Virus record (IMG/VR): IMGVR_UViG_3300018080_000195
Coordinates: 1 to 60,316 of that record
Reading direction: 5' to 3' (one strand)
Length of the DNA stretch: 60,316 nt
Origin: a virus
Taxonomy: Duplodnaviria; Caudoviricetes
The position numbers were made by a program, and so were the translations under genes. Below are positions 30,952-58,735 of this stretch, piece after piece. Below the pieces are notes generated by a model. It saw nothing but the letters and a program-made list of their open reading frames with translations. It did not search any database and was not told the origin of the DNA. Positions within the stretch are counted from its first letter, which is position 1, and every line of letters starts with the position of its first letter.

Positions 30952-31509
30952 CTACAGGATCAATCCGTCTTCTCGGAGATCCTGCAACTGGAATGCTACT
31001 TCCGTCATCTGTTCCGGAGTCCACGTATTCCAAGTGATGATGAAGTCCTTTGACTCTTCGTCCAGGAATGCGAGATTCTTCTCTACTAATCCTTCGTTCC
31101 TGTATTCGTATATAGTCGTCTTGCTTGTGTTCCAAGGAAGATCGACTATAGGAACGAGTCCTGACTTGTCCTTTTTCTTGATTGGACGAAGGATTCCGTT
31201 TGCTGCATCCGATACTAACTGGAAACAAGCTAATGACTTTTTCGTCTTGAGTCCAAATCCAAAGATTGTCTTTTCTCCTCTTTGCTTGGACTCTTTCTTG
31301 TCCTTTGGAATGGACTTCCGGAACGCAATACACAGAACGTTGTCGAGACACATTTGACATTTTGTGTCTGAAGACTCGATTTGTCCAAGACAAACGTTCA
31401 ACGTCTGCATCTGCGTACGGAACTGTTCTGGAATGTGTCCAAGCAATCCGTAAATCGCTAAGACAATCCATTCCTGGACGACTCTGACAATAGTTTTTTC
31501 CGCGCTCAT
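30952..31509 (-). CDS. Zn-finger plus FG...PWN...TxY family protein (paralog 1)
   Basis: CLGQIESSDTKCQMCLDNVLC...KTIFGF...LPWNTSKTTIYE; AAAGGA RBS. Confidence 0.75.
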   Translation of the reverse strand: MSAEKTIVRVVQEWIVLAIYGLLGHIPEQFRTQMQTLNVCLGQIESSDTKCQMCLDNVLCIAFRKSIPKDKKESKQRGEKTIFGFGLKTKKSLACFQLVSDAANGILRPIKKKDKSGLVPIVDLPWNTSKTTIYEYRNEGLVEKNLAFLDEESKDFIITWNTWTPEQMTEVAFQLQDLREDGLIL

Positions 31510-31674
31510 TTTGAATTCCTTTCTTTTTCGAGTTAGACGTAAACGTCCAATTGTCGAAGTCGAATCGACTCGGATTCTTGCTACTGCGAATCATGTAAAA
31601 TCTCATCTCCTTTCTTGAGCAGATTCGGACTCAACTTTCTGAGTCCTTGCTCAGAGTCTTTCCGACTCGATAAC

Positions 31675-31704
31675 AGATTACTCGACTCGACAAATATATG
31701 TCAA
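31675..31704 (-). promoter_or_regulatory. sigma70-like promoter for the leftward mini-operon
   Basis: TTGACA-N18-TAATCT on the minus strand. Confidence 0.45.
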
Positions 31705-31734
31705 GTGAATTTACAATTTAATTTCGCAAGTATC

Positions 31735-31995
31735 TGAGTCTGAAGAATACTCAGTCAATTGCTTTCCGAGTCAATTAAATTCTTGACTGAGTATTCAAAG
31801 GACTTATTGACTATCGAGTCAAGTTATTGCTCATTCACTGAGTCAAAACTTGACTATCGAGTCAAAGTCTTTCTTTATTAGTCAGTCAATTCGCTTGCTA
31901 TCGAGTCAAGTCGAAGTCTGAGTCAATATTCGTTCTATCAGTCGAGACGTGACTCAAGTAAAACAAAGCGACTCAGAACTATAACATGAGTCAGA
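31735..31995. repeat. GAGTCA(A) motif cluster with TTGACT-ATCG-AGTCAA palindromic boxes
   Basis: TTGACTATCGAGTCAA at 31807-31822 and 31850-31865, variant at 31895-31909; 14-bp inverted repeat 31745-31758 / 31783-31796. Confidence 0.8.
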
Positions 31996-32435
31996 TCTCA
32001 GATCTGGGCCACCCCGATTTCGCTGGCATCCGATATTTTGTGATACCACGGGTGGGAAAAACACACACAACGCGGCTCAGGACGCCGCTCCTCAAAAACC
32101 AAACCGAAAACGGATCAAAAACACCACAATCTCCTCAACAGTGCGGAGAATAGTAGACTCACCATACGTGCTTGTAAATAGTTGATTCAATTAGACTTTT
32201 TCAAGTGAGAAGAATATTCAACAATAACTGTAGAATATTCTACAATCAGAGCGTATGTGGCACACCCATACGGGTATGTCTGAATCGACTATTTTATTGA
32301 ATTTAGTTAATGAATTCAAGCGTTTACAATGTGGTCATAATAGTCGCTAATAGTTTTGTATGAATATTGCATACAAATTACTTGAAGTAGATCCATTAAA
32401 TGCGGGTAACCGCAAAACACGAAAGGAGTCAGAAC

Positions 32436-43678: not shown

Positions 43679-43838
43679 TTTAGCTGAGTGATCCGGCTAA
43701 GTCGCATTCGTAGGCTCAATCGGATTTTCTGGGCCACTCAGAGGTACATGGGAGGCACGGATGCGGGTCACGCGGCATACACGTAAACCGATACGTCGCC
43801 ATCCGGCGATGTGGGTACCAATGGAGGAAAAACGCACC

Positions 43839-44531
43839 ATGAATGAATTTAGCGTAATCGTTGGCGACTGTAGGGAAAAAATGTCTGAGGTCGGCACGGT
43901 TGACTACATATTCACCGGGCCACCGGACTTCGATGAAGTAGGACTCAATCCAAAGAGCACGAAGGACTACATAGCATATTATGCACTGCTCAAGAGAGCA
44001 TTCGATGAGATGGTCCATGTCACTCCTGTTATCACTGTCGCTATCACAGACAGGAAGTGCGATGGGGAGATCATCCCTAAACACGCAATCGTACAAGATT
44101 TACTCCGAACACATGGATGGAGATGCATATCACACAAGATCTGGAGCAAGTCGATGAAACGTAACTTGTACCGTCTTACATACACACACATCATGTCCTT
44201 TGCAAAGGGAACAGTGAAGCAGAACCACCCCAACGTGTATGAGATAGACGTTCTCCATGCAAAGGAACAGAAGTGGCAAGGATACTCCTACGGGATCAAT
44301 GAGGAGGTCGTCTGGCCCTTCATCCTCAACTTCACGAATGAAGGAGACACTGTGCTCGATCCGTTCCTTGGATCTGGCACTACTGCGGTCGTGTGCTTGC
44401 AGAACAATAGGAACTGCATCGGCATCGAGATCTGCTCAGTCACAGCAGAGATAGCACAAAAGCGGGTCTCCTCTCAAGGACGGATTCCAAGAGCGAGAAA
44501 ATTTTTCGAAGAGCGAGAAAATTTTGATTAG
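43839..44531 (+). CDS. N4/N6 DNA methyltransferase-like (beta order), atypical motif IV
   Basis: VDYIFTGPPDF ... VLDPFLGSGTT ... IGIEI. Confidence 0.85.
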   Translation: MNEFSVIVGDCREKMSEVGTVDYIFTGPPDFDEVGLNPKSTKDYIAYYALLKRAFDEMVHVTPVITVAITDRKCDGEIIPKHAIVQDLLRTHGWRCISHKIWSKSMKRNLYRLTYTHIMSFAKGTVKQNHPNVYEIDVLHAKEQKWQGYSYGINEEVVWPFILNFTNEGDTVLDPFLGSGTTAVVCLQNNRNCIGIEICSVTAEIAQKRVSSQGRIPRARKFFEERENFD

Positions 44532-44801: not shown

Positions 44802-45118
44802 TCATATGCGGACTGTGTGCAAACTTCCGGCTCAGTGTTGACGATAAGTACTTCTTCACACAAACCAGGACGGAGGATGCAACAACTGTCGCGCTGTTCA
44901 AGAAATGCTCGAAACACGGACTCGTACACGAAACATTCGTCGGCTGTGATGACTACGAACCAACGAAGTCGTTCTACTGCGCTAGACTTGAGTGCTACAT
45001 AGGAACAACGATCTGCCTTGCGAATCAGACACAGTGCAAGGACGAATGTGAAGAGTGCGTCCAAGGAGAACTTGTGATTGAAGCAATGAGAGGTGTGCAA
45101 TGCTACGAATTGAAGTGA
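44798..45118 (+). CDS. Cys-rich hypothetical protein
   Basis: CGLCANF...C...C, ATGA overlap. Confidence 0.65.
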   Translation: MIICGLCANFRLSVDDKYFFTQTRTEDATTVALFKKCSKHGLVHETFVGCDDYEPTKSFYCARLECYIGTTICLANQTQCKDECEECVQGELVIEAMRGVQCYELK

Positions 45119-46512
45119 TTGACGCTGTTCACAGTCGCGTCACGGAGGATGACGCTCAAGTCATCCAAAACTGCTTGTCCTATCCTGCTGCATTCTGGAG
45201 GCCGCAGACTGTAGCTATAAACAAGAGGACAGGGCAGCCGATCAAGAAGAAAGTCCGAATGGACTACATGAAGGACGTTTTCACATCAAGGAGAAACGGC
45301 TATAAGTACTTCCACACTGGACTCGTTCCTCGAATACAACAGTACTGTGCTGAGATAGATTGTCCTTCCTCCGTCCTTAATCCCATGAGTGATATTGAGC
45401 TTGACTTCTCACAGCCGTATCTATCAGACATAACATTGAGAGAGGATCAACTCAAACTTGTATTTGATGCTTGCAAAAACCGGAGAGGAATAATCCAAGC
45501 TCCTACTGGAACAGGAAAGACTGTCATACAGATGGCACTCCGCTCCGCATTCGCTCACTACAGAACGCTCATCCTTGCACATACAAAGAGCATCGTGGAG
45601 CAGACGTTCGCAGAACTCAACAAGCACGGCTTTAGCAATGTCCAGATCATCGGAGCAGGACACTCTCATCAGCGCGGTCTCTTCGGAGACACAGTAGTCG
45701 CTACAATGCAGAGTTTCGTCAAGATTCCAGCAATGGAGCGGGCAGACTACTTCGAAGTCGTGCTTGTGGACGAAGCGCACCATGTTGTACGTCCGGAAGG
45801 AGTATACGCAAAGATACTCCGCACACTCCTCAGTCCTATCCGACTTGGATTCACTGCGACTGTTCCAACAGCTACAGAGGCAGTCCTGACGATGGAGGGC
45901 CACCTCGGGCCCGTCATCGGACAGCAAACGATACAGGAAGCAGCAGAATTGGAGATCCTAGCAAAGCCGCGGATCCGATTGCTCAAGTCTACATACAGCA
46001 ATCGAGTACACGACATCCGGAGATACGAAGACGTATACGTTGAAGGGATCGTGATGAACCGTCAACGGAACCGGATGATTGCTGAGTGTGTTCAGGATTA
46101 TGTGAAGGAAGGAAAGACAGTGCTGATCCTAGTGACTCGACTTGAGCACGGGGACAATCTCTCACACATACTGAACACAGTGCTTGGAGTTCCGACAGAG
46201 TTCGTGGAAGGAAGCACGGAAAGCGATGCACGAGAGATCGTCAAGGAAGCAATGATTCAGAAGGAACAGAAGTGTGTCATAGCTACAGCAGTATGGAGGG
46301 AGGGCATAAACATCCCGTCCCTGGACGTTGTGATCAACGCTTGCGGAGGAAAGTCGGAGATCATGACCCTGCAAGCGATAGGACGTGGACTCCGGAAGAC
46401 TGACGAGAAGGATGAAGTCGTGATTGTGGACATCTTTGACCCGTCACATTACTATCTTGTCAATCATTTCGGACAGAGAGTTACACTCTACATGGATCAA
46501 GGATGGATGTGA
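45100..46512 (+). CDS. superfamily 2 helicase (UvsW-like)
   Basis: APTGTGKT, VDEAH, GFTAT, EGINIPSL, QAIGRGLR. Confidence 0.93.
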   Translation: MLRIEVIDAVHSRVTEDDAQVIQNCLSYPAAFWRPQTVAINKRTGQPIKKKVRMDYMKDVFTSRRNGYKYFHTGLVPRIQQYCAEIDCPSSVLNPMSDIELDFSQPYLSDITLREDQLKLVFDACKNRRGIIQAPTGTGKTVIQMALRSAFAHYRTLILAHTKSIVEQTFAELNKHGFSNVQIIGAGHSHQRGLFGDTVVATMQSFVKIPAMERADYFEVVLVDEAHHVVRPEGVYAKILRTLLSPIRLGFTATVPTATEAVLTMEGHLGPVIGQQTIQEAAELEILAKPRIRLLKSTYSNRVHDIRRYEDVYVEGIVMNRQRNRMIAECVQDYVKEGKTVLILVTRLEHGDNLSHILNTVLGVPTEFVEGSTESDAREIVKEAMIQKEQKCVIATAVWREGINIPSLDVVINACGGKSEIMTLQAIGRGLRKTDEKDEVVIVDIFDPSHYYLVNHFGQRVTLYMDQGWM

Positions 46513-47058: not shown

Positions 47059-47253
47059 ATGCATCTCGTATTGAAGCGGCAAGACACTCCTGGCAGACCC
47101 GCGCTGTGTCCAGTATGTAAAGTACGGATAGCGAAGAGCGAACTCCGACTGGAGACTCACTTGTACGGTGAGCAGAGCAGGCAGTTCCACCTCTCATGTG
47201 CCAAGATTCTTGCAGCAAAGATCATCAATCTTGTGGAGACGGAAAGGAGGTGA
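47059..47253 (+). CDS. PARP-type zinc-finger-like small protein
   Basis: CPVCKVRIAKSELRL...FHLSC. Confidence 0.6.
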   Translation: MHLVLKRQDTPGRPALCPVCKVRIAKSELRLETHLYGEQSRQFHLSCAKILAAKIINLVETERR

Positions 47254-47255
47254 GC

Positions 47256-47477
47256 ATGGGGAGAATCAAAGACTGGGTAAAAAGGAAGGAGGACACGATG
47301 AAGCCAAGAAGCAAGGAAGAACTCAGATCCAAGGACGTGGCACACATCCTCGACATCTCTCCGGATGACGTGATCGACATCGCCCGGAGAGGCCATCTCA
47401 AAGGACGCAAAGACGGACGCTTCTGGAGATTCACGCTCAAGGACGTGAGACAGTATCAGAAGCAGTTCGGGGACTAG
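47256..47477 (+). CDS. excisionase-like HTH (HTH_17 / MerR-type) protein
   Basis: LRSKDVAHILDIS...RRGHLKGRKDGRFWRF; alternative start at 47298. Confidence 0.85.
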   Translation: MGRIKDWVKRKEDTMKPRSKEELRSKDVAHILDISPDDVIDIARRGHLKGRKDGRFWRFTLKDVRQYQKQFGD

Positions 47478-47515
47478 CAGCACGATACTACTTCGGAGGA
47501 AGGAGGTGATATCCA

Positions 47516-47614
47516 GTGAGCCAAAGGGCAGCCCTGGTGCTTACGACTATGTTCCTGATCGTGACGGCACTACTTACGTTCCGCGGCGTAACTATAGGTA
47601 ACGCGGGTGGGTAA
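47516..47614 (+). CDS. 32-aa hydrophobic peptide
   Basis: AGGAGGTG RBS; GTG start; MSQRAALVLTTMFLIVTALLTFRGVTIGNAGG. Confidence 0.6.
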   Translation: MSQRAALVLTTMFLIVTALLTFRGVTIGNAGG

Positions 47615-47634
47615 GTAAGTAAGGAGGGAGTCGT

Positions 47635-47810
47635 TACCTAACTTAATCTGACCAAACACGATACGACGAAACGAAATAGAATAGGAAGGAGGACATCACT
47701 CAACTGGATTGGATCTAACTTTATCCAACTTCACCGGACGGGACAAGAATTTCTCCACTATACATGACGATGCCTAATTAGACAATACAGTACAATACGA
47801 AACAACATGG
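47635..47810 (+). repeat. pentamer-periodic (NAYNN) array A, three units
   Basis: 47635-47684 (10 pentamers), 47692-47746 (11), 47756-47810 (11); 31 of 32 have A then C/T at positions 2-3. Confidence 0.9.
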
Positions 47811-47826
47811 AAAAGGGAGAAGAACA

Positions 47827-48474
47827 ATGCAAGGAATCGCTAAATGCCGATACAATACGAATGTACTTGGAACAGCTCCAGCGAAAGGCTATACCCAAAT
47901 TCTTCTCGACTATATCGAAGGAAGAATGGACAAGGAGTTCCTAACATTCGCACAGCAAGCGGCAAAAAAGAATCAAACGATTGAGAAAGTGGCAACGGAC
48001 ATCCTCAGTCTATTTCACAGAGACAATGACGGCAATATTGTCGTCGGAAGCTGGATGATGAAACGCTGTCTGATCGACACAGGAATGATTTATTTCAAGT
48101 CGAAAGAGCACAAGGAACATCCAATCAAGAAAGTCATTCCTTATCTCGTTCAAGTCGTTGAGCCGTACTACATCAAACTCACAAATGGAAATGGAGAAGC
48201 GATACGGGAGCCCATAGGAGTAGACACATACGCGGTAAACTCCAAAGGTCGGAACTTCTTCAAAGCATATGAGTATCTTCCACCAGGAACGGAGTTTGAG
48301 TTTGAGTTCCATGTAGACGACGAAGTTCTCACGAAAGAAGTCTGTGAATGGTGGGTCCACAAAGCCGGAGTGGTCGGAAACTACGCTTTCCGAGAAAGAT
48401 TCGGAAAATTCGACATTCTCAAACTAGAGATAAGCGGTGGAGAGAAGGAAGAAGAGACTCAAGAAGCCGCTTAA
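47827..48474 (+). CDS. stand-alone RAMP / Cas7-like protein
   Basis: NVLGTAP; FHRDNDGNIVVGSWMMKRCL; YEYLPPGTEFEFEF; Gly-containing C-terminal loop AGVVGNYAFRERFGKFDI. The motif order matches group 7 RAMPs. Confidence 0.7.
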   Translation: MQGIAKCRYNTNVLGTAPAKGYTQILLDYIEGRMDKEFLTFAQQAAKKNQTIEKVATDILSLFHRDNDGNIVVGSWMMKRCLIDTGMIYFKSKEHKEHPIKKVIPYLVQVVEPYYIKLTNGNGEAIREPIGVDTYAVNSKGRNFFKAYEYLPPGTEFEFEFHVDDEVLTKEVCEWWVHKAGVVGNYAFRERFGKFDILKLEISGGEKEEETQEAA

Positions 48475-48619
48475 ATCTAATTGTATTGAACGCAACGAGA
48501 CGAGACTCGATGCCACACCATGACAATACCCTACGCTGCCCTACTCGAAAATACGGAACGGTACGTGACAACAATACCCAACGAAACAAGACGAGTCGTG
48601 ACAGCATCTAACAAAACAG
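48474..48619 (+). repeat. pentamer-periodic (NAYNN) array B, three units separated by CAATACCC
   Basis: 48474-48523 (10), 48532-48571 (8), 48580-48619 (8); linker CAATACCC at 48524-48531 and 48572-48579. Confidence 0.9.
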
Positions 48620-48634
48620 AGAAGGAGAAAAAAC

Positions 48635-48913
48635 ATGGAAGAAATCAAAGTCGAAAAAGTAATGAATCGAAAGAAGATTGCAGACGCAATCCACGGCTCC
48701 ATCGACGCAGGACTCAAGCTTCTCGACAAAGAAGAAGTCAGCAGAGAAGACATGCTTAGGGTCAACGTCATGCGGGCCCTCGCAACGAACATCAATGCAG
48801 GAGTAGCAATGATTCAACAGGAAACGAGTCAGGAAAGACTGACTCTTGTTCAAGAGAGAATGAAACAGTTAGGGTATCCTGTCGCCGCACAAATAGGAGG
48901 AAAGACGGAGTAA
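48635..48913 (+). CDS. 92-aa helical hypothetical protein between arrays B and C
   Basis: AAGGAG RBS; predicted all-helical. Confidence 0.75.
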   Translation: MEEIKVEKVMNRKKIADAIHGSIDAGLKLLDKEEVSREDMLRVNVMRALATNINAGVAMIQQETSQERLTLVQERMKQLGYPVAAQIGGKTE

Positions 48914-48914
48914 G

Positions 48915-49193
48915 TACAGCACCACTGGACGTAACGAAACACCACCTGACAGAGTAGGACCATACCTTACGTTACTTCATATCTTTGCCTGATTCTGATG
49001 AACTGTACTCGACACAGCACCAGACATCTCCATGCGGTATATAACGGTACCCTAGTAGCATCAAACCATTACGCTACAATACAGTATTTAACCTAACATA
49101 ACAGTACTCGAATTAGTCAGCGGTACGGTACAATACTATACATTACAACACAGTACAAGATAAAATTCTACGGTACAAGACGATACGCTACTT
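48915..49193 (+). repeat. pentamer-periodic (NAYNN) array C
   Basis: 48928-48982 (10 of 11), a degenerate middle, 49070-49109 (8 of 8), 49124-49193 (14 of 14). Confidence 0.9.
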
Positions 49194-49202
49194 GGCCCTA
49201 TT

Positions 49203-50126
49203 ATGAACCTCCATCTCTTCGACATCTGTAAGTATCTTGACTCAGTAGGGGTCCCATACTCCACGGAGAGCAAGCACACAACGGACGATTGGATCAACTT
49301 ACAGTGTCCGTTCTGCCCAGGAGGGGACCCCTCCGATCATCTTGGAATTCATCTCGACAAGAAGAGCATGAACTGTTGGAGATGTGGAACGACCGGAACA
49401 GCAATCAAGCTGATCATGAAGCTTGAGAGAATTGGACTACAGCAAGCGTTAGCAAAAATTGCTAGTCAGACATCGCACAGAAAGGACATAACGCAAAAAT
49501 GGAGCACTCTCGTAAGCGAGAGACGTATTTCCTACATGAGCATCGAGCTTCCAAAGGAGTCTCAGAACACTCTGCTCGACGCTCATCGCAGTTTTCTCGA
49601 AGAGAGACGATTCGATCCAGACCGCATATTCTCCAAGTATGATCTCCGATGCGTCCAACATTCCGTCAAGTGGAAGCACAGACTGATTATCCCGATCAAG
49701 AGACATAGCAAACTTGTAAGCTGGACTAGCAGAGACGTGACTGGAGAATCACATCTCAAGTACAAGACTGCTTCGAATGAGGAGAGCATCGTTCCGGCAA
49801 AGGAGACACTCTACAACTTGGACAGCGTAAAGGACACGGTGATCATCACGGAAGGACCGCTTGACGTATGGAGAATAGGAGACGGAGCAGTCTGCACTTA
49901 CGGCACACAGTACACGAAGACCCAGCTTCTATTGCTCTCAAAGATGAGGAGAGCGTTCGTACTTTTCGACTCAGACGCGGAAAATCCGGCAAAAAATTTA
50001 GGCGCGGATTTGGGATTGTTCGTGAATCAAACCGAGATTTTGTTTTTAGAACAAGGAGATCCTGCGGACATGTCGGAGGATGATGTCCATCATCTCCGGA
50101 GAGAAATCTTCGGAAAGATTTTTTAA
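49203..50126 (+). CDS. DNA primase (Zn finger plus TOPRIM)
   Basis: CPFC...H...NCWRCG; RLIIPI; IITEGPLD; FDSDA; DPAD. Confidence 0.92.
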   Translation: MNLHLFDICKYLDSVGVPYSTESKHTTDDWINLQCPFCPGGDPSDHLGIHLDKKSMNCWRCGTTGTAIKLIMKLERIGLQQALAKIASQTSHRKDITQKWSTLVSERRISYMSIELPKESQNTLLDAHRSFLEERRFDPDRIFSKYDLRCVQHSVKWKHRLIIPIKRHSKLVSWTSRDVTGESHLKYKTASNEESIVPAKETLYNLDSVKDTVIITEGPLDVWRIGDGAVCTYGTQYTKTQLLLLSKMRRAFVLFDSDAENPAKNLGADLGLFVNQTEILFLEQGDPADMSEDDVHHLRREIFGKIF

Positions 50127-53151: not shown

Positions 53152-53727
53152 ATGAAGCCGATTGATGAAATCAACATGGACAAACTGATCGAGTGCTGCA
53201 AGCAAGTCAACGAGGTATCCGATGACAAGATAGAAGTCGTTGGGACCTCCACTCCGGACTTGATCAAAGCATTCACACTGCGCCTTGAGAGCATGACGGA
53301 TGAGCAGCAGGACAAGGTGCAGGAAGCCGTCGCGTTCTACAACGATCTGTACGCTGACGAGCAAGTGACAGATCCTCCACCTCCTCCTCCGGACGAAAAG
53401 AAGGAAGAGAAACAGAAGAGTGATCCTGTGAAGAGGAACGTAGCGACTACGAAGAAGAAGAAGGAGAAACCCGCAGCGAAGAAGAAGAAGAAGGAGAAAG
53501 AGCCCGCAGAGAAGAAACCCCCGAAAGAGAAGGACGAGTTCGGCTACACTGTCGGAACGCTGAACAACAAGTTCATGCAAGCGATCAAGCAGAAGCCGAT
53601 GACGATGAAGGAAGTCAAGGACGAAGCGTGGAACGAGAAGAGCGTCACGTTCTACGAGATCTTCAAGAAGGAGCGGGTAGCCGGAAGAGCGTTCAAGGAC
53701 AAAGATGGAAAGATGTCTGTGCGATGA
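53152..53727 (+). CDS. Lys-rich FG...WN...TxY family protein (paralog 3)
   Basis: KDEFGYTVGT...KPMTMKEVKDEAWNEKSVTFYE; TTGACA at 53077-53082 upstream. Confidence 0.75.
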   Translation: MKPIDEINMDKLIECCKQVNEVSDDKIEVVGTSTPDLIKAFTLRLESMTDEQQDKVQEAVAFYNDLYADEQVTDPPPPPPDEKKEEKQKSDPVKRNVATTKKKKEKPAAKKKKKEKEPAEKKPPKEKDEFGYTVGTLNNKFMQAIKQKPMTMKEVKDEAWNEKSVTFYEIFKKERVAGRAFKDKDGKMSVR

Positions 53728-54722
53728 TCGAGACGAAGGAGTACCCTCCGAGAGAGTATCTGTTTCCAGAGGAAAAGGAAATAGACGAGACAGCTAAGGG
53801 GTTGACCTTCGACGCACTGAAGAAGAGTCATGATCGTAGAAGCAATCTCATAGACAAACTCGGCTACGTTCCTACTTCCATCTTCAAGCGAGACAGCAAG
53901 GAACAATTGTATCTCACACAAGATACGTTCATTGAAGAGAGAGGGGGTGGTTACGAGAAGCACAACAAGGAAATGAAGGGGGACCTTCGCAGCTTGGACA
54001 GAGACAAAAACGAATTTCTGCTTGTCAATACTGGATTGCGGATACAAGGCCGGAAAGGGTACTTATCACGTTTTCCTCAGAATGTCGGACGCATCCTGAT
54101 TGAAGTCCATTGTCCAGAGCAAGGAACGATCTACGATCCATTCGCAGGTCACAACAGCAGGATGCAGTTAGCGTATCGTTGCAAACGCAACTACATCGGA
54201 GTGGACATCTGCGCTGAGTACATGAAACTCAATCGGGAACTCCGACAGAAACTCCTCGAAAGACCGGTCTTCGAAGGAGAGTACAAGCCGACACTTGAGT
54301 TGATCGAAGGAAGTTCCGCGAAAGTGGATCTTCCAGACAACTGGGCAGACTTTACGATCACATCCCCACCTTACTGGGATCTGGAGTATTACGGACCAGA
54401 GGAAGAGCAACTTGGATTGGACAAAACGTATGAGGAATTCCTTGAAGCTTTGTATCCGCATATTGTTGAGAACGAGAGAGTGCTGAAGCCCGGAGCGTTC
54501 TGCATCTGGTGCATCAATGACTTCCGGAAGGACAAGAAGTATCACCCGTACCACATAGACTTGTACAAGCTGTTCGAAGTCGCAGGATTCGAAGCGTTCA
54601 ACATCTACATCATTGATCTCGTCAGCGTTGTGCAAGCGTCCTTTGTGCGGGACATAGTGGATCACAAAATCATTCCAAAACAACACGAATATGTACTCGT
54701 ATTCCGAAAGAGAGGAGTGTGA
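53724..54722 (+). CDS. N4/N6 DNA methyltransferase
   Basis: IYDPFAG, YIGVDI, TSPPYWDLEYY, HEYVLVFRK. Confidence 0.9.
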   Translation: MIETKEYPPREYLFPEEKEIDETAKGLTFDALKKSHDRRSNLIDKLGYVPTSIFKRDSKEQLYLTQDTFIEERGGGYEKHNKEMKGDLRSLDRDKNEFLLVNTGLRIQGRKGYLSRFPQNVGRILIEVHCPEQGTIYDPFAGHNSRMQLAYRCKRNYIGVDICAEYMKLNRELRQKLLERPVFEGEYKPTLELIEGSSAKVDLPDNWADFTITSPPYWDLEYYGPEEEQLGLDKTYEEFLEALYPHIVENERVLKPGAFCIWCINDFRKDKKYHPYHIDLYKLFEVAGFEAFNIYIIDLVSVVQASFVRDIVDHKIIPKQHEYVLVFRKRGV

Positions 54723-55820: not shown

Positions 55821-58436
55821 ATGAAAGGGTTCTTCTCAAGAGAAGAGATCGAACAGGACTTCGAGATACAGCAACTAGAAGATCCGCTTCCTGCTTGCAA
55901 AAAGTGTGGAATGCATGTCGGGTGTATGCACCCTAAGACAGAGTATACAGGAGACGGAAGGAAGAAGTGTCTCATCGTCGCGGAAGCGATGGGCCCTGAT
56001 GAAGACGAAGTAGGAAAGCAGTTAGTCGGACAAGTAGGACAGTGGTTCCGAGACTCTCTCTCCGACTATGATCTGGACTTGGATCGGGACTTCTGGAAGA
56101 TCAACGCTGTCAACTGCTTTCCTCACGACAAGGACAGACACGTCCGGAGTCCAACAAGAGCGGAAGTTGAATGCTGTCGTCCTCTAGTGGAGAAAGCAAT
56201 CCGTGAGACAAATCCTGAGTTCATCTGGATATTCGGCAACTCCGCCCTCGAATCCTTCTTCATGAAGGACTTCTCCAGACTCAAGATCACACGGTGGAGG
56301 AACACCTGCATTCCGGATCAGAAGTACAATGCTTGGATTCTTCCAATGTTTCATCCAAGCTACATCACTAGGAATCCGAACGACGACAATCTCCTCGCTT
56401 GCTTCGACTGGGACTTGAAGTATGCCGTCTCCTGTCTTAACAAGGAGCGTCCTCCAGTCATCAAGCCAAGAGAGCACGTTGTCTGTCTGACTGACCCTGT
56501 TGATGTTGTCACGCAACTTGAGGACATTCTGTCACGCGAGCCAGGATTTGTAGTCATTGACTACGAGACAAGCGGACTGAAACCACAAGCACCTGGACAC
56601 AAGATCGCTACAGTTGCAATCATGGAGGAAGGAAGCAGTGCAGCATACAGCTTTCCATTCCAGTACAGCGATCACTTCAATGTGCCAGAGCGTCTAGTTA
56701 TCAAGTCTTCAATGAGACAGATCCTCCGTCACAAGAAGATAGGAAAAGTCGCACACAACATGAAGTTCGAACACGCATGGGGTGAAAAGATCTTCGGAGT
56801 CTCCACGGAGAACTGGAAATGGGACACAATGCTCTGTGCTCACATACTGGACACGAGAAAAGGATTCTCTGGCCTGAAGTTTCAGAGTTATGTCAACTTT
56901 GGAATCCGTCCATACGACAAGCACATCAAGCAGTACTTGAAGGACACAGGATCAGGATTCAATAAGATAGACAACGCTCCACTGGACTCTCTTCTCCTGT
57001 ACGGTGGAATGGATGTAGTGCTAACCAGAATGCTGTACAGGAAACAGCTTGATCAGTTCACACTGACGGAAGGACTGAACGAGCGGAACAAGTTAGCGAA
57101 AGCTTACAGGTTTTTCCATGAAGGAAACCTTGCGCTTGCAGACGTACAGCGCAACGGGATCCCGATGGACGAAGAGTACTACGCAGAAAAGGACATGGAA
57201 CTAGCGGATAAAATAGACGACTTGTACGAGAAGTTAGCAGAGTCCAAGGAAGCAGAGCAGTTCAAGGAAGAGTTCGGCAGAGAGATCAACCTGAAAGGAA
57301 AAAGTTCGCAGAAGGATCTGACGAAACTGCTGACGGAAGTGCTAGATCTTGAGATGGAAAGGACGCTGAAGAATAACATAGTGACAGATGAGAAAGCACT
57401 GACTCGGCTAAACATTCCGTTCACGAATCAACTCCTGAAGCTTCGGAAGCTGGAGAAGATCCACGGCACATACTTCGCTGAGTTCAAGCGTGAGATGTGT
57501 GACGGACGGATGTTCCCGTTCTTTGATCTTGTGATTCCTAGATCACTCCGGTCGAGCAGTTCAAAGCCGAACTTCCAGAACATACCGAACAGAGAGGAGG
57601 AAGCAAAGAAGCTCTGTCGGAGTGGAATCATTCCATCCAAAGGAAATCAGATCCTAGAGAGCGACTTCAAAGGAATCGAAGTGTCTATTGCCGCGTGTTA
57701 CACACAGGACCCAACTCTTGTGGAGCACGTCACGGACCCGAACAACGACATGCATAGAGACTGCGCTGCTGATGTCTGGCTCCTAGACACAGATCAAGTC
57801 ACAAGTGAGATCCGTTTCTATGCTAAGAACTGTTGGGTCTTCCCGCAATTCTATGGATCGTACTTTGGAAACTGCGCGGAGGACTTGTGGGAGTCCGTCA
57901 TCGAGCAGGACTTGAAAGCTGCGAATGGAGAGTTCGTAGCTGATCACATACAGGATCAAGGAATCGACTCCTTGGACACGTTCAAGGAGCATTGTCAGGA
58001 CGTTGAGCGTGTTTTCTGGAACAGTCGCTTTCAAGTCTACAAGCAGTGGAAGGATAGGATACAGAGAGAGTTCAGGAAGAGGGGGTACTTCGAGACTTAC
58101 TTTGGATTCCGCTTTCACGGCTATCTGACGTACAATCAACTCTGTAATTACCCGATCCAAGGAACAGCATTCCATTGTCTGCTGTGGACTCTGATCGAAC
58201 TCCAAGACTGGGTAAAGCGAGAGAAGCTGCGCTCTCGGATCATCGGACAGATTCATGACTCCATAGTGTGGGACCTCAATCCGGAGGAGAGAGATACTGT
58301 CATCGAAAAGACAATCCAGTACGGAACAGTGGACATCGTAAGTGCTCACCCGTGGATCAATGTTCCACTTGAGATCGACTTCGAGATCACTCCTGTAGAC
58401 GGATCATGGTACGAGAAGGAGGAGATGCAAGTATGA
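55821..58436 (+). CDS. family A DNA polymerase with N-terminal family 4 UDG-like domain and 3'-5' exonuclease
   Basis: CKKC...C, AEAMG.DED, NAVNCFP, FHPSY (UDG-4); DYETSG, HNMKFE (exo); SSSKPNFQNIP, SDFKGIE, DMH, FYG, NYPIQG, QIHDS (Pol A). Confidence 0.95.
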   Translation: MKGFFSREEIEQDFEIQQLEDPLPACKKCGMHVGCMHPKTEYTGDGRKKCLIVAEAMGPDEDEVGKQLVGQVGQWFRDSLSDYDLDLDRDFWKINAVNCFPHDKDRHVRSPTRAEVECCRPLVEKAIRETNPEFIWIFGNSALESFFMKDFSRLKITRWRNTCIPDQKYNAWILPMFHPSYITRNPNDDNLLACFDWDLKYAVSCLNKERPPVIKPREHVVCLTDPVDVVTQLEDILSREPGFVVIDYETSGLKPQAPGHKIATVAIMEEGSSAAYSFPFQYSDHFNVPERLVIKSSMRQILRHKKIGKVAHNMKFEHAWGEKIFGVSTENWKWDTMLCAHILDTRKGFSGLKFQSYVNFGIRPYDKHIKQYLKDTGSGFNKIDNAPLDSLLLYGGMDVVLTRMLYRKQLDQFTLTEGLNERNKLAKAYRFFHEGNLALADVQRNGIPMDEEYYAEKDMELADKIDDLYEKLAESKEAEQFKEEFGREINLKGKSSQKDLTKLLTEVLDLEMERTLKNNIVTDEKALTRLNIPFTNQLLKLRKLEKIHGTYFAEFKREMCDGRMFPFFDLVIPRSLRSSSSKPNFQNIPNREEEAKKLCRSGIIPSKGNQILESDFKGIEVSIAACYTQDPTLVEHVTDPNNDMHRDCAADVWLLDTDQVTSEIRFYAKNCWVFPQFYGSYFGNCAEDLWESVIEQDLKAANGEFVADHIQDQGIDSLDTFKEHCQDVERVFWNSRFQVYKQWKDRIQREFRKRGYFETYFGFRFHGYLTYNQLCNYPIQGTAFHCLLWTLIELQDWVKREKLRSRIIGQIHDSIVWDLNPEERDTVIEKTIQYGTVDIVSAHPWINVPLEIDFEITPVDGSWYEKEEMQV

Positions 58437-58735
58437 GTTACCACATGCGGAGCAAAGAGTCGGAGGGCTCTGGATTCAAAGAAGTTGTAATCGGTCTTTC
58501 CGTATTCTTTCTTGCACTGTACGGTGTCGTCATGCTCTGTGTCTCTATTCACGAGTATTTCAAGCCGCAAGTAATTGATCCTGAACTGTACGACATACAA
58601 ACGGACATCATGAGCGATCATCTTGCAGACATGAGACAGGAAGAGGAGATGACAAGAGTACTGAAAGGCATCGAACAGCAACTAGAGAGAATGAATGAAA
58701 TTCAACTCAAAATCTACGAACGGGAAAGGAGATGA
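58433..58735 (+). CDS. membrane-anchored hypothetical protein
   Basis: TM segment VVIGLSVFFLALYGVVMLCV plus coiled coil. Confidence 0.65.
   Translation: MSYHMRSKESEGSGFKEVVIGLSVFFLALYGVVMLCVSIHEYFKPQVIDPELYDIQTDIMSDHLADMRQEEEMTRVLKGIEQQLERMNEIQLKIYERERR

Follow-up and report, generated by a model that had tools for sequence, protein, structure and literature searches.

The run of five-base repeats that starts at the stop codon of a small RAMP gene in a linear virus record of 60,316 bp (the whole of this stretch of DNA is called the window below) is very probably the middle guide array of a phage VIPR locus. This array, array B, is composed of three N-A-Y tracts of 10 repeats each, separated by slips of phase, and the 8-mer CAATACCC that recurs in it belongs to repeats in phase with their own tract. 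The order of the putative locus would be array A, vipr, array B, vap and array C.

VIPR (Viral Interference Programmable Repeat) has been described in phages as a RAMP of about 20 kDa, Vipr, which together with vap is flanked by intergenic vrRNAs (10.64898/2026.04.26.720920). In the available text of that paper, a vrRNA has 9-16 YNNGG repeats followed by a structured 3' tail, its NN letters recognize double-stranded DNA with a skip of 1 nt, competing phages and satellites are silenced, and NNNGG, YNNNG and NNNNG are named as alternative repeats; in the system of SUSP1, silencing was abolished by GGY substitutions, and the constructs in the legend of fig. S12 include GAY and AAY. According to the accessible part of a companion paper (10.64898/2026.04.26.720927), each repeat is bound by one Vipr protomer, with G1 read by H17 and D177, G2 by R138 and W178, and Y3 in a pocket that includes R179. 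Satellites and solo vrRNAs are the subject of 10.64898/2026.10.15.759431, going by what is available of it, and the corresponding part of 10.64898/2026.10.21.760802 reports 21 clusters of non-canonical VIPR repeats, located next to Vipr-like folds, for example GAC/NN, CAC/NN, WGT/NN and TGH/NN, with motifs that are each 'repeated 10 times'. Because xAC/NN repeats have been published, the kind of repeat found here is known, and A at position 2 is already in print.

The vipr gene, its partner and their surroundings

The RAMP gene, vipr (47827-48474, + strand, with the stop codon TAA at 48472-48474), encodes a stand-alone Cas7-like protein of 215 aa, whose glycine-rich loop is VGNYAFRERFGKF. No family of Pfam or PHROG matched this product. 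When its AF2 model (pLDDT 76.6, pTM 0.70) was used as the query, the top fold matches in both structure searches were exclusively Cas7-family RAMPs, in agreement with the first-pass annotation, which had called the gene upstream of the repeats a RAMP. The highest Z scores were those of Cmr4 (6s6b_I, 9.1), type VII Cas7 (8.8), Cmr4 4w8w (8.6) and Csm3 (8.0), followed by gRAMP and Csf2, and the Cas7-family matches had Foldseek probabilities of 0.99-1.0, although the best E is no lower than 6e-4. The profile of an alignment (A1) built from nine homologues of the protein, at 45-48% identity, matched one solved chain, PDB 36pp_D, 'SUSP1 Vipr protein' (E = 4.6e-4, 177,635 sequences), over the C-terminal strand and the glycine-rich loop. 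Only 29 proteins were returned at E <= 1e-3 by a profile search of 1.84 billion representatives, and with one of them, the Vipr-like protein P0038, hhalign gave a probability of 96.6% and E = 5.7e-10. Judged from these profile matches and from the predicted structure, the 215-aa protein is a Vipr homologue with a Cas7-type fold; VIPR is expected to have, outside a CRISPR-cas locus, a small stand-alone RAMP with an RRM core, a glycine-rich loop and a thumb, and by fold and loop such a RAMP is present in the window.

The vap-like gene (48635-48913, + strand), which occupies the place of the adjacent accessory gene of VIPR systems, encodes 92 aa that are predicted to form a helical hairpin. It has been kept beside vipr: homologues were found by phmmer in 18 of the 22 related loci described below, the four loci without one being short contigs that end too early, and a homologue is present in the sister clade too (alignment A2 for the family). 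The AF2 model of the protein (pLDDT 80.4) has two helices, and neither a family nor a fold match was obtained for it (best Foldseek E 2.3). The identification of vap as a Cas11-like small subunit found no support, considering that the model is a two-helix hairpin and that Csm2 chains appeared only at E 7-9.5.

All the genes over about 28 kb around the cassette are on the + strand, and the neighbours of the cassette at 43.7-58.4 kb are replication genes. This replication module comprises a helicase (45100-46512, +), an HTH protein (47196-47477, +), a DnaG-type primase located 3' of array C (49203-50126, +) and, also on the + strand, genes for an O-like protein, a DnaB-like helicase, a sliding clamp and a UDG-exonuclease-PolA fusion. 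In an 871-aa protein encoded at 55821-58436 (+), a uracil-DNA glycosylase domain is fused to a 3'-5' exonuclease and a family A DNA polymerase. The module also contains two genes for N6/N4 DNA methyltransferases (43761-44531 and 53628-54722, +), and a gene of this type is found near the cassette also in L015 and other relatives. Between the HTH gene and array A there is a hydrophobic ORF of 32 aa with a GTG start (47516-47614, +), with the near-perfect ribosome-binding site AAGGAGGTGA 7 nt upstream of it; its product may be a small membrane peptide. At about 31000-32000 both GC and AT skew change sign and coding passes from the - to the + strand; the GC content falls to 0.42 at 30-32 kb, and a divergent promoter or origin region is a consistent reading of this stretch.

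Deposited phages gave no match in DNA and protein searches. In Rfam, CRISPR repeat families included, nothing in the window reached the gathering score, and a search of 47400-49300 with E up to 10 gave no more than chance-level matches.

The five-base rhythm and the units of array B

The 5-nt rhythm of the intergenic regions is far beyond chance. Positions at which at least 8/10 steps are A-Y number 42 in the window at period 5, as against 0, 0 and 2 at periods 4, 6 and 7, and runs with at least 5/8 AC at period 5 occur only at 47631-47821, 48480-48625 and 48909-49209, all of them intergenic, and never on the - strand. A hidden-Markov parse placed the arrays at 47632-47812, 48471-48617 and 48920-49201. 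No G-based array was found on the + strand of the window. A fourth, weak period-5 patch (58581-58710) is irregular and lies inside an ORF of 109 aa, and it was treated as a false positive.

Array A (47632-47812, + strand) and array C (48920-49201, + strand) are NAYNN tracts delineated by the period-5 scans and the hidden-Markov parse. Array A is located 5' of vipr, ends at the ribosome-binding site of this gene and falls into three blocks, each coherent in phase, of 11.6, 11.8 and 12.8 repeat lengths, with junctions after 47690 and 47749. Array C extends from vap to the primase gene, in blocks of 13.6, 5.2, 8.4, 9.0 and 18 repeat lengths. Intergenic pentanucleotide repeats that combine constrained letters with two hypervariable ones, a mark of VIPR, are therefore found in the window. 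It was also observed that the ribosome-binding-site-like GGAAGGAGG lies exactly at the first phase junction of array A (47680-47695), with no start codon after it, and that in L003 a 24-mer made of the array end and the ribosome-binding site is duplicated about 100 nt upstream of the real one; array A and L003 thus hint that new units arise by duplication of the array end.

Array B had been divided in the first-pass annotation into units of 10, 8 and 8 pentamers, counted from the RAMP stop at 48474 and separated by CAATACCC as a linker. The count itself was reproduced, with 10, 6 and 7 NAYNN pentamers (23/26), and so were the two exact copies of the 8-mer, at 48524-48531 and 48572-48579, which are the only ones in the 60,316-base window and are both on the + strand. 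Taken with its preceding base, however, the supposed linker reads (G/A)ACAA-TACCC, that is, two pentamers in phase with the following unit, copy 1 with unit 2 and copy 2 with unit 3, and array B is therefore divided into three units with 10 anchors each, all on the + strand. Unit 1 (48474-48521; 10 repeats, 10/10 A-Y) begins on the last base of the vipr stop; unit 2 (48522-48569; 10 repeats, 8/10 A-Y) opens with the pentamers GACAA-TACCC; and unit 3 (48570-48619; 10 repeats, 9/10 A-Y) opens with AACAA-TACCC and runs into the ribosome-binding site of the next gene, AGAAGGAG (48620-48627). The step from anchor to anchor is 3 nt at each junction and 5 nt elsewhere. The punctuation of array B is this 3-nt phase slip just before the 8-mer, and there is no separate linker.

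That CAATACCC is a constant delimiter or a processing site, as had been proposed, is thus not borne out: the 8-mer forms part of two ordinary in-phase NAYNN units, is absent from arrays A and C, and does not occur in an array of any related locus, the seven scattered matches in the loci searched lying outside arrays or in an unrelated clade. ACAATACCC could still be imagined to function where units 2 and 3 begin, as a short 5' handle or as a site of processing. Each copy of ACAATACCC directly follows a phase slip and makes up the opening pair of repeats in its unit; the exact 10/10/10 split, which makes the units of array B equal in length, is 1 of the 406 possible splits of the array; and a relative, L012, does have a constant 21-nt delimiter between its tracts. 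Chance was assessed with 20,000 shuffles that kept the layout of the array and the make-up of its columns. Two of the three units shared at least 9/10 letters in their first two pentamers with P = 0.005, a post hoc value, whereas an exact repeat of at least 8 nt arose somewhere in 59% of the shuffles (at least 9 nt: 26%), so that chance could account for the identity of the 8-mer taken alone. Even block size is found in array A too (11.6, 11.8 and 12.8 repeat lengths). Moreover, neither unit 1 nor any block of array A or C contains ACAATACCC, nor do the arrays of related loci, and the motif obeys the NAYNN rule and would therefore be bound like any other repeat. On this evidence a signal function appears quite improbable, and CAATACCC may be either a remnant of unit duplication or a short 5' lead common to the two units within a VIPR guide array.

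The first-pass annotation had also seen a loose likeness to CRISPR. The likeness stands in that the variable units, in three blocks of 10, would belong to a CRISPR-related guide system, VIPR; it does not extend to a CRISPR array, for which direct repeats of about 24-40 nt and unique spacers of similar length were required. The sole repeated word in array B is 8-9 nt long and in phase with the 5-nt rhythm, which the 40-nt 'spacers' follow too, and a CRISPR array was rejected. The units inferred from phase (10/10/10 in array B, 11.6-12.8 in array A) lie within the 9-16 repeats per vrRNA given for VIPR, and a unit of 10 also fits the motifs 'repeated 10 times', in so far as the two papers are available. 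A close published arrangement may be the 'staggered' vrRNA arrays in the legend of fig. S18 of 10.64898/2026.04.26.720920, in which units are directly consecutive without a structured spacer, as they are here; going by the legend, those units overlap by 1 nt, whereas the anchor step at the window junctions is 3 nt.

A constant delimiter, an idea that found no support in the 8-mer of the window, does occur in the family. In L012, five copies of a 21-nt element forming a GNRA-capped stem, four of them exact, stand between tracts. In 13 relatives, array B is followed on its 3' side by UYUGU and then by a two-tier hairpin with an outer stem that varies in sequence; 11 of the 13 fold alike, with z from -1.2 to -4.9 in single-sequence folds, and two are variants, and RNAalifold on a MAFFT alignment of the tails gave no consensus pairs. 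As further observations, positions 672-1211 of L012 contain seven tracts of 12.6 to 20.6 repeat lengths with a hairpin after each, namely one GGGGGCGAAAGCCCCC, five (C/A)ACTAAGAGG(C/T)GA(G/A)AGCCGAT and, before vap, the tail hairpin of the clade. In L020 the clade tail hairpin (2760-2802) lies mid-array, about 100 nt before vap and with a further repeat tract after it, so the position of the tail hairpin does not depend on the ribosome-binding site of vap. The window itself has no clade tail motif in 47401-49300 and the full motif nowhere, array B folds weakly (z = -2.05), and the invariable structured 3' tail that is characteristic of VIPR was not found. In the relatives, blocks are about 4 to 40 repeats long and every phase shift occurs, and so phase slips are no regular punctuation across the clade.

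Relatives of the cassette and change of the repeat letters

Alignment-based scans retrieved one IMG/VR locus and 21 metagenome loci related to the window; single-protein IMG/VR scans with the RAMP and the primase as queries gave no match. After the duplicates L005 and L011 had been left out, period-5 A-Y arrays were found around the vipr homologue in 20/20 related loci, both 5' and 3' of the homologue and, where the contig allows, after the next small gene as well. The neighbours of the cassette include terminase, Prim-Pol, sliding clamp, glycosyltransferase, methylase, polyvalent protein and primase genes; since they differ from locus to locus, the cassette is self-contained. The same A-T arrays, vap and hairpin occur in a sister clade (L025, L026), and in a distant clade from IMG/VR (L027-L041) the arrays read N-G-Y-N-N and the glycine-rich loop contains a tryptophan. 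The arrays of this distant clade are long and lie 3' of the gene, on contigs that are partly 120-210 kb, and those of L040 exceed 500 nt. Loci were searched for, and not found, for the Vipr-like clades P0039 and P0038. NCBI and UniRef hold 0/10 of the closest cluster representatives and one member across the 10 more distant clusters looked up.

In 16 related loci and the window, repeat position 2 is A in 91% of the repeats and position 3 is a pyrimidine in 94% (T 73%, C 21%), whereas position 1 is free (A.27, C.15, G.26, T.31) and positions 1, 4 and 5 are near background. The majority of the relatives use A-T; the window and L004 are mostly A-C.

Two pairs of closely similar loci allowed the letters to be compared with coding sequence. 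Between L016 and L023, identical letters amounted to 98/101 at A, 92/101 at Y, 83/99 at N1, 69/102 at N4 and 71/100 at N5, i.e. 140/202 at N4 and N5 together, and 131/156 third codon positions of vipr and vap were identical (N4+N5 versus third positions, p = 0.0018). The corresponding values for L018 and L023 were 112/115, 107/116, 92/113, 90/116 and 86/114, with 176/230 at N4 and N5 together and 141/156 at third codon positions (p = 0.0004). The fastest change is thus at N4 and N5, the letters that encode the target in published VIPR, and it exceeds that at third codon positions. Repeat position 1 behaves like a neutral site; its difference from N4/N5 gave p = 0.0076 in the first pair and p = 0.33 in the second.

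Strand, repeat code and proposed function

The canonical GGY, or NNNGG, YNNNG or NNNNG, was not found on the + strand of the window, where the letters are A-Y. On the - strand the window arrays read N-G-T-N-N, which is a published form, and so the strand matters for the window. A-T reads alike on both strands, so that in the A-T relatives position 2 is adenine whichever strand is read; in the window and L004 the repeats are mostly A-C, and this assigns the motif to the sense strand. The guide arrays are most probably read from the + strand.

The opposite case, guide RNAs made from the - strand and antisense to the operon, would give N-G-T-N-N in the window and the fixed letters R-T in the clade. 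It draws on the fact that NACNN, when reverse-complemented, becomes NNGTN, which corresponds to YNNNG as published, and that the AT-type relatives read identically on both strands, and a comparison of hairpin stability separates the strands little, with 7/13 more stable on the + strand. Several observations, however, argue for the + strand: over about 28 kb all the genes run in that direction, with the arrays directly adjoining their ribosome-binding sites; the tail hairpin, read on this strand, sits 3' of the tract, as in the published system; the delimiters of L012 have GNRA loops (GAGA, GAAA) and one U-G pair on this strand only; the two fastest positions, N4 and N5, are adjacent in the + frame, as in GGY/NN; and the combination of a fixed purine with either pyrimidine resembles the logic of the pocket in the published structure. 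In addition, the 'vrRNA1 and vipr CDS' of SUSP1 are described, in the available text on that system, as amplified in one piece, with single-promoter vectors, which would imply co-orientation. A - strand origin of the guides is accordingly considered unlikely. As a quite different alternative, the arrays might be regulatory leaders, in which an RNA-binding protein that forms rings or filaments would, like TRAP, bind triplets 5 nt apart and control the translation of vipr, vap and the primase, or else origin or primase-site DNA. The arrays do end at ribosome-binding sites and lie within a replication module, and NAC is GTN on the other strand, which resembles primase recognition triplets. Yet the three arrays are kept in relatives in which the cassette adjoins genes outside replication (terminase, glycosyltransferase, polyvalent protein), N4 and N5 outpace third codon positions in divergence, which is not expected of an operator, and the protein beside the arrays is a predicted Vipr homologue. 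As the relatives carry the cassette in unrelated gene neighbourhoods, both the TRAP-like translational operator and the origin or primase-site DNA were dropped, and such a role is regarded as highly improbable.

For a VIPR guide array read from the + strand, homology with SUSP1 suggests the following course of events. The arrays would be transcribed, most likely with the operon. One Vipr protomer would then bind each 5-nt repeat, holding the fixed letters and presenting the two variable ones, and the 3-nt phase slip should break the register of the protein filament between tracts. Jointly, the variable letters would read a double-stranded DNA target in a gapped code, leading to its silencing, and the target would probably lie in a competing mobile element. 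When the guides of 90 blocks were read by five rules (NNx, NNN, NN, NNxx and NNNx) and compared with the window and with 35 related or comparison loci, they gave no better matches than shuffled guides did, the best match being 0.83-0.875 for real and shuffled guides alike. No RNA run was among the sequencing runs listed as containing this DNA.

The residues that contact the fixed letters in SUSP1 can be followed in the profile alignment with 36pp_D, in which R138, D177, W178 and R179 align with E149, A187, F188 and R189 of the window protein (the numbering of the chain matches the paper at R138, C173, D177, W178 and R179; position 175 is V in the chain and T in the paper). In the A-anchored clade W178 is changed to F/Y and D177 to A/S/P, and the R138 position is E/Q. 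Going by the aligned residues, the loss of D177 would fit the free position 1, and the kept R179 would fit the kept pyrimidine at position 3. When two A-anchored clades are set against two G-anchored ones, the change of W to F/Y accompanies that of G to A; the two A-anchored clades are sisters, and the association is therefore effectively one evolutionary event. The simple explanation of G to A by the replacement of R138 with E is weakened by the G-anchored clade A5, which has D, Q or E there.

The cassette resembles the type II VIPR of SUSP1 (Vipr, vap1 and four vrRNAs) in its stand-alone RAMP with an RFGKF-type glycine-rich loop, in its small partner gene and in its five-base tracts of about 10 repeats in the flanking intergenic regions; both are phage-borne and without a CRISPR array. 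The fixed letters differ, being G-G-Y in SUSP1 and N-A-Y in the window, and the guanine contacts R138, D177 and W178 are replaced in the window by E149, A187 and F188, with R179 kept. Unlike SUSP1, the window has no pseudoknot or hairpin tail, its units abut with a 3-nt slip, and its partner protein is a predicted two-helix hairpin without a recognizable DNA-binding fold. With the non-canonical VIPR systems, as far as the available text describes them (10.64898/2026.10.21.760802), the cassette shares period-5 arrays, a Vipr-like fold, A at position 2 and C at position 3, as in the examples named there; it differs in that position 1 is free in its clade, which is mostly A-T, and the clade may itself be among the 21 clusters of that paper. 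The Cas7 backbone of class 1 CRISPR effectors is alike in fold, and there too each fixed step of the guide is covered by one protomer. However, the step is 5 nt here and not 6, there is no repeat-spacer array, Cas6, Cas5 or Cas1, and the information of a VIPR guide is noncontiguous.

VIPR was published only in 2026, from NCBI sequences, and the present clade is known only from metagenome assemblies. It adds about 17 independent natural loci with adenine in place of guanine at the anchor, together with matching changes at the guanine-contact residues and direct evidence of fast evolution of the guide letters. It is possible, and is put forward here only tentatively, that this VIPR lineage re-specified the anchor from guanine to adenine, yielding an orthogonal N-A-Y/NN code, and that the guides of the window need neither tail nor spacer. 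If so, a G-anchored Vipr could not load N-A-Y/NN guides, and vice versa, and the phage would be shielded from the decoy vrRNAs of its rivals; the 3-nt slip alone would end and start filaments, and a single untailed transcript could carry three guides. The clade helps to define which parts of the code may change and suggests orthogonal pairs of Vipr and guide for tool building, and the window, which has no tail and only phase slips as punctuation, is a compact test case for the way in which guide units are delimited.
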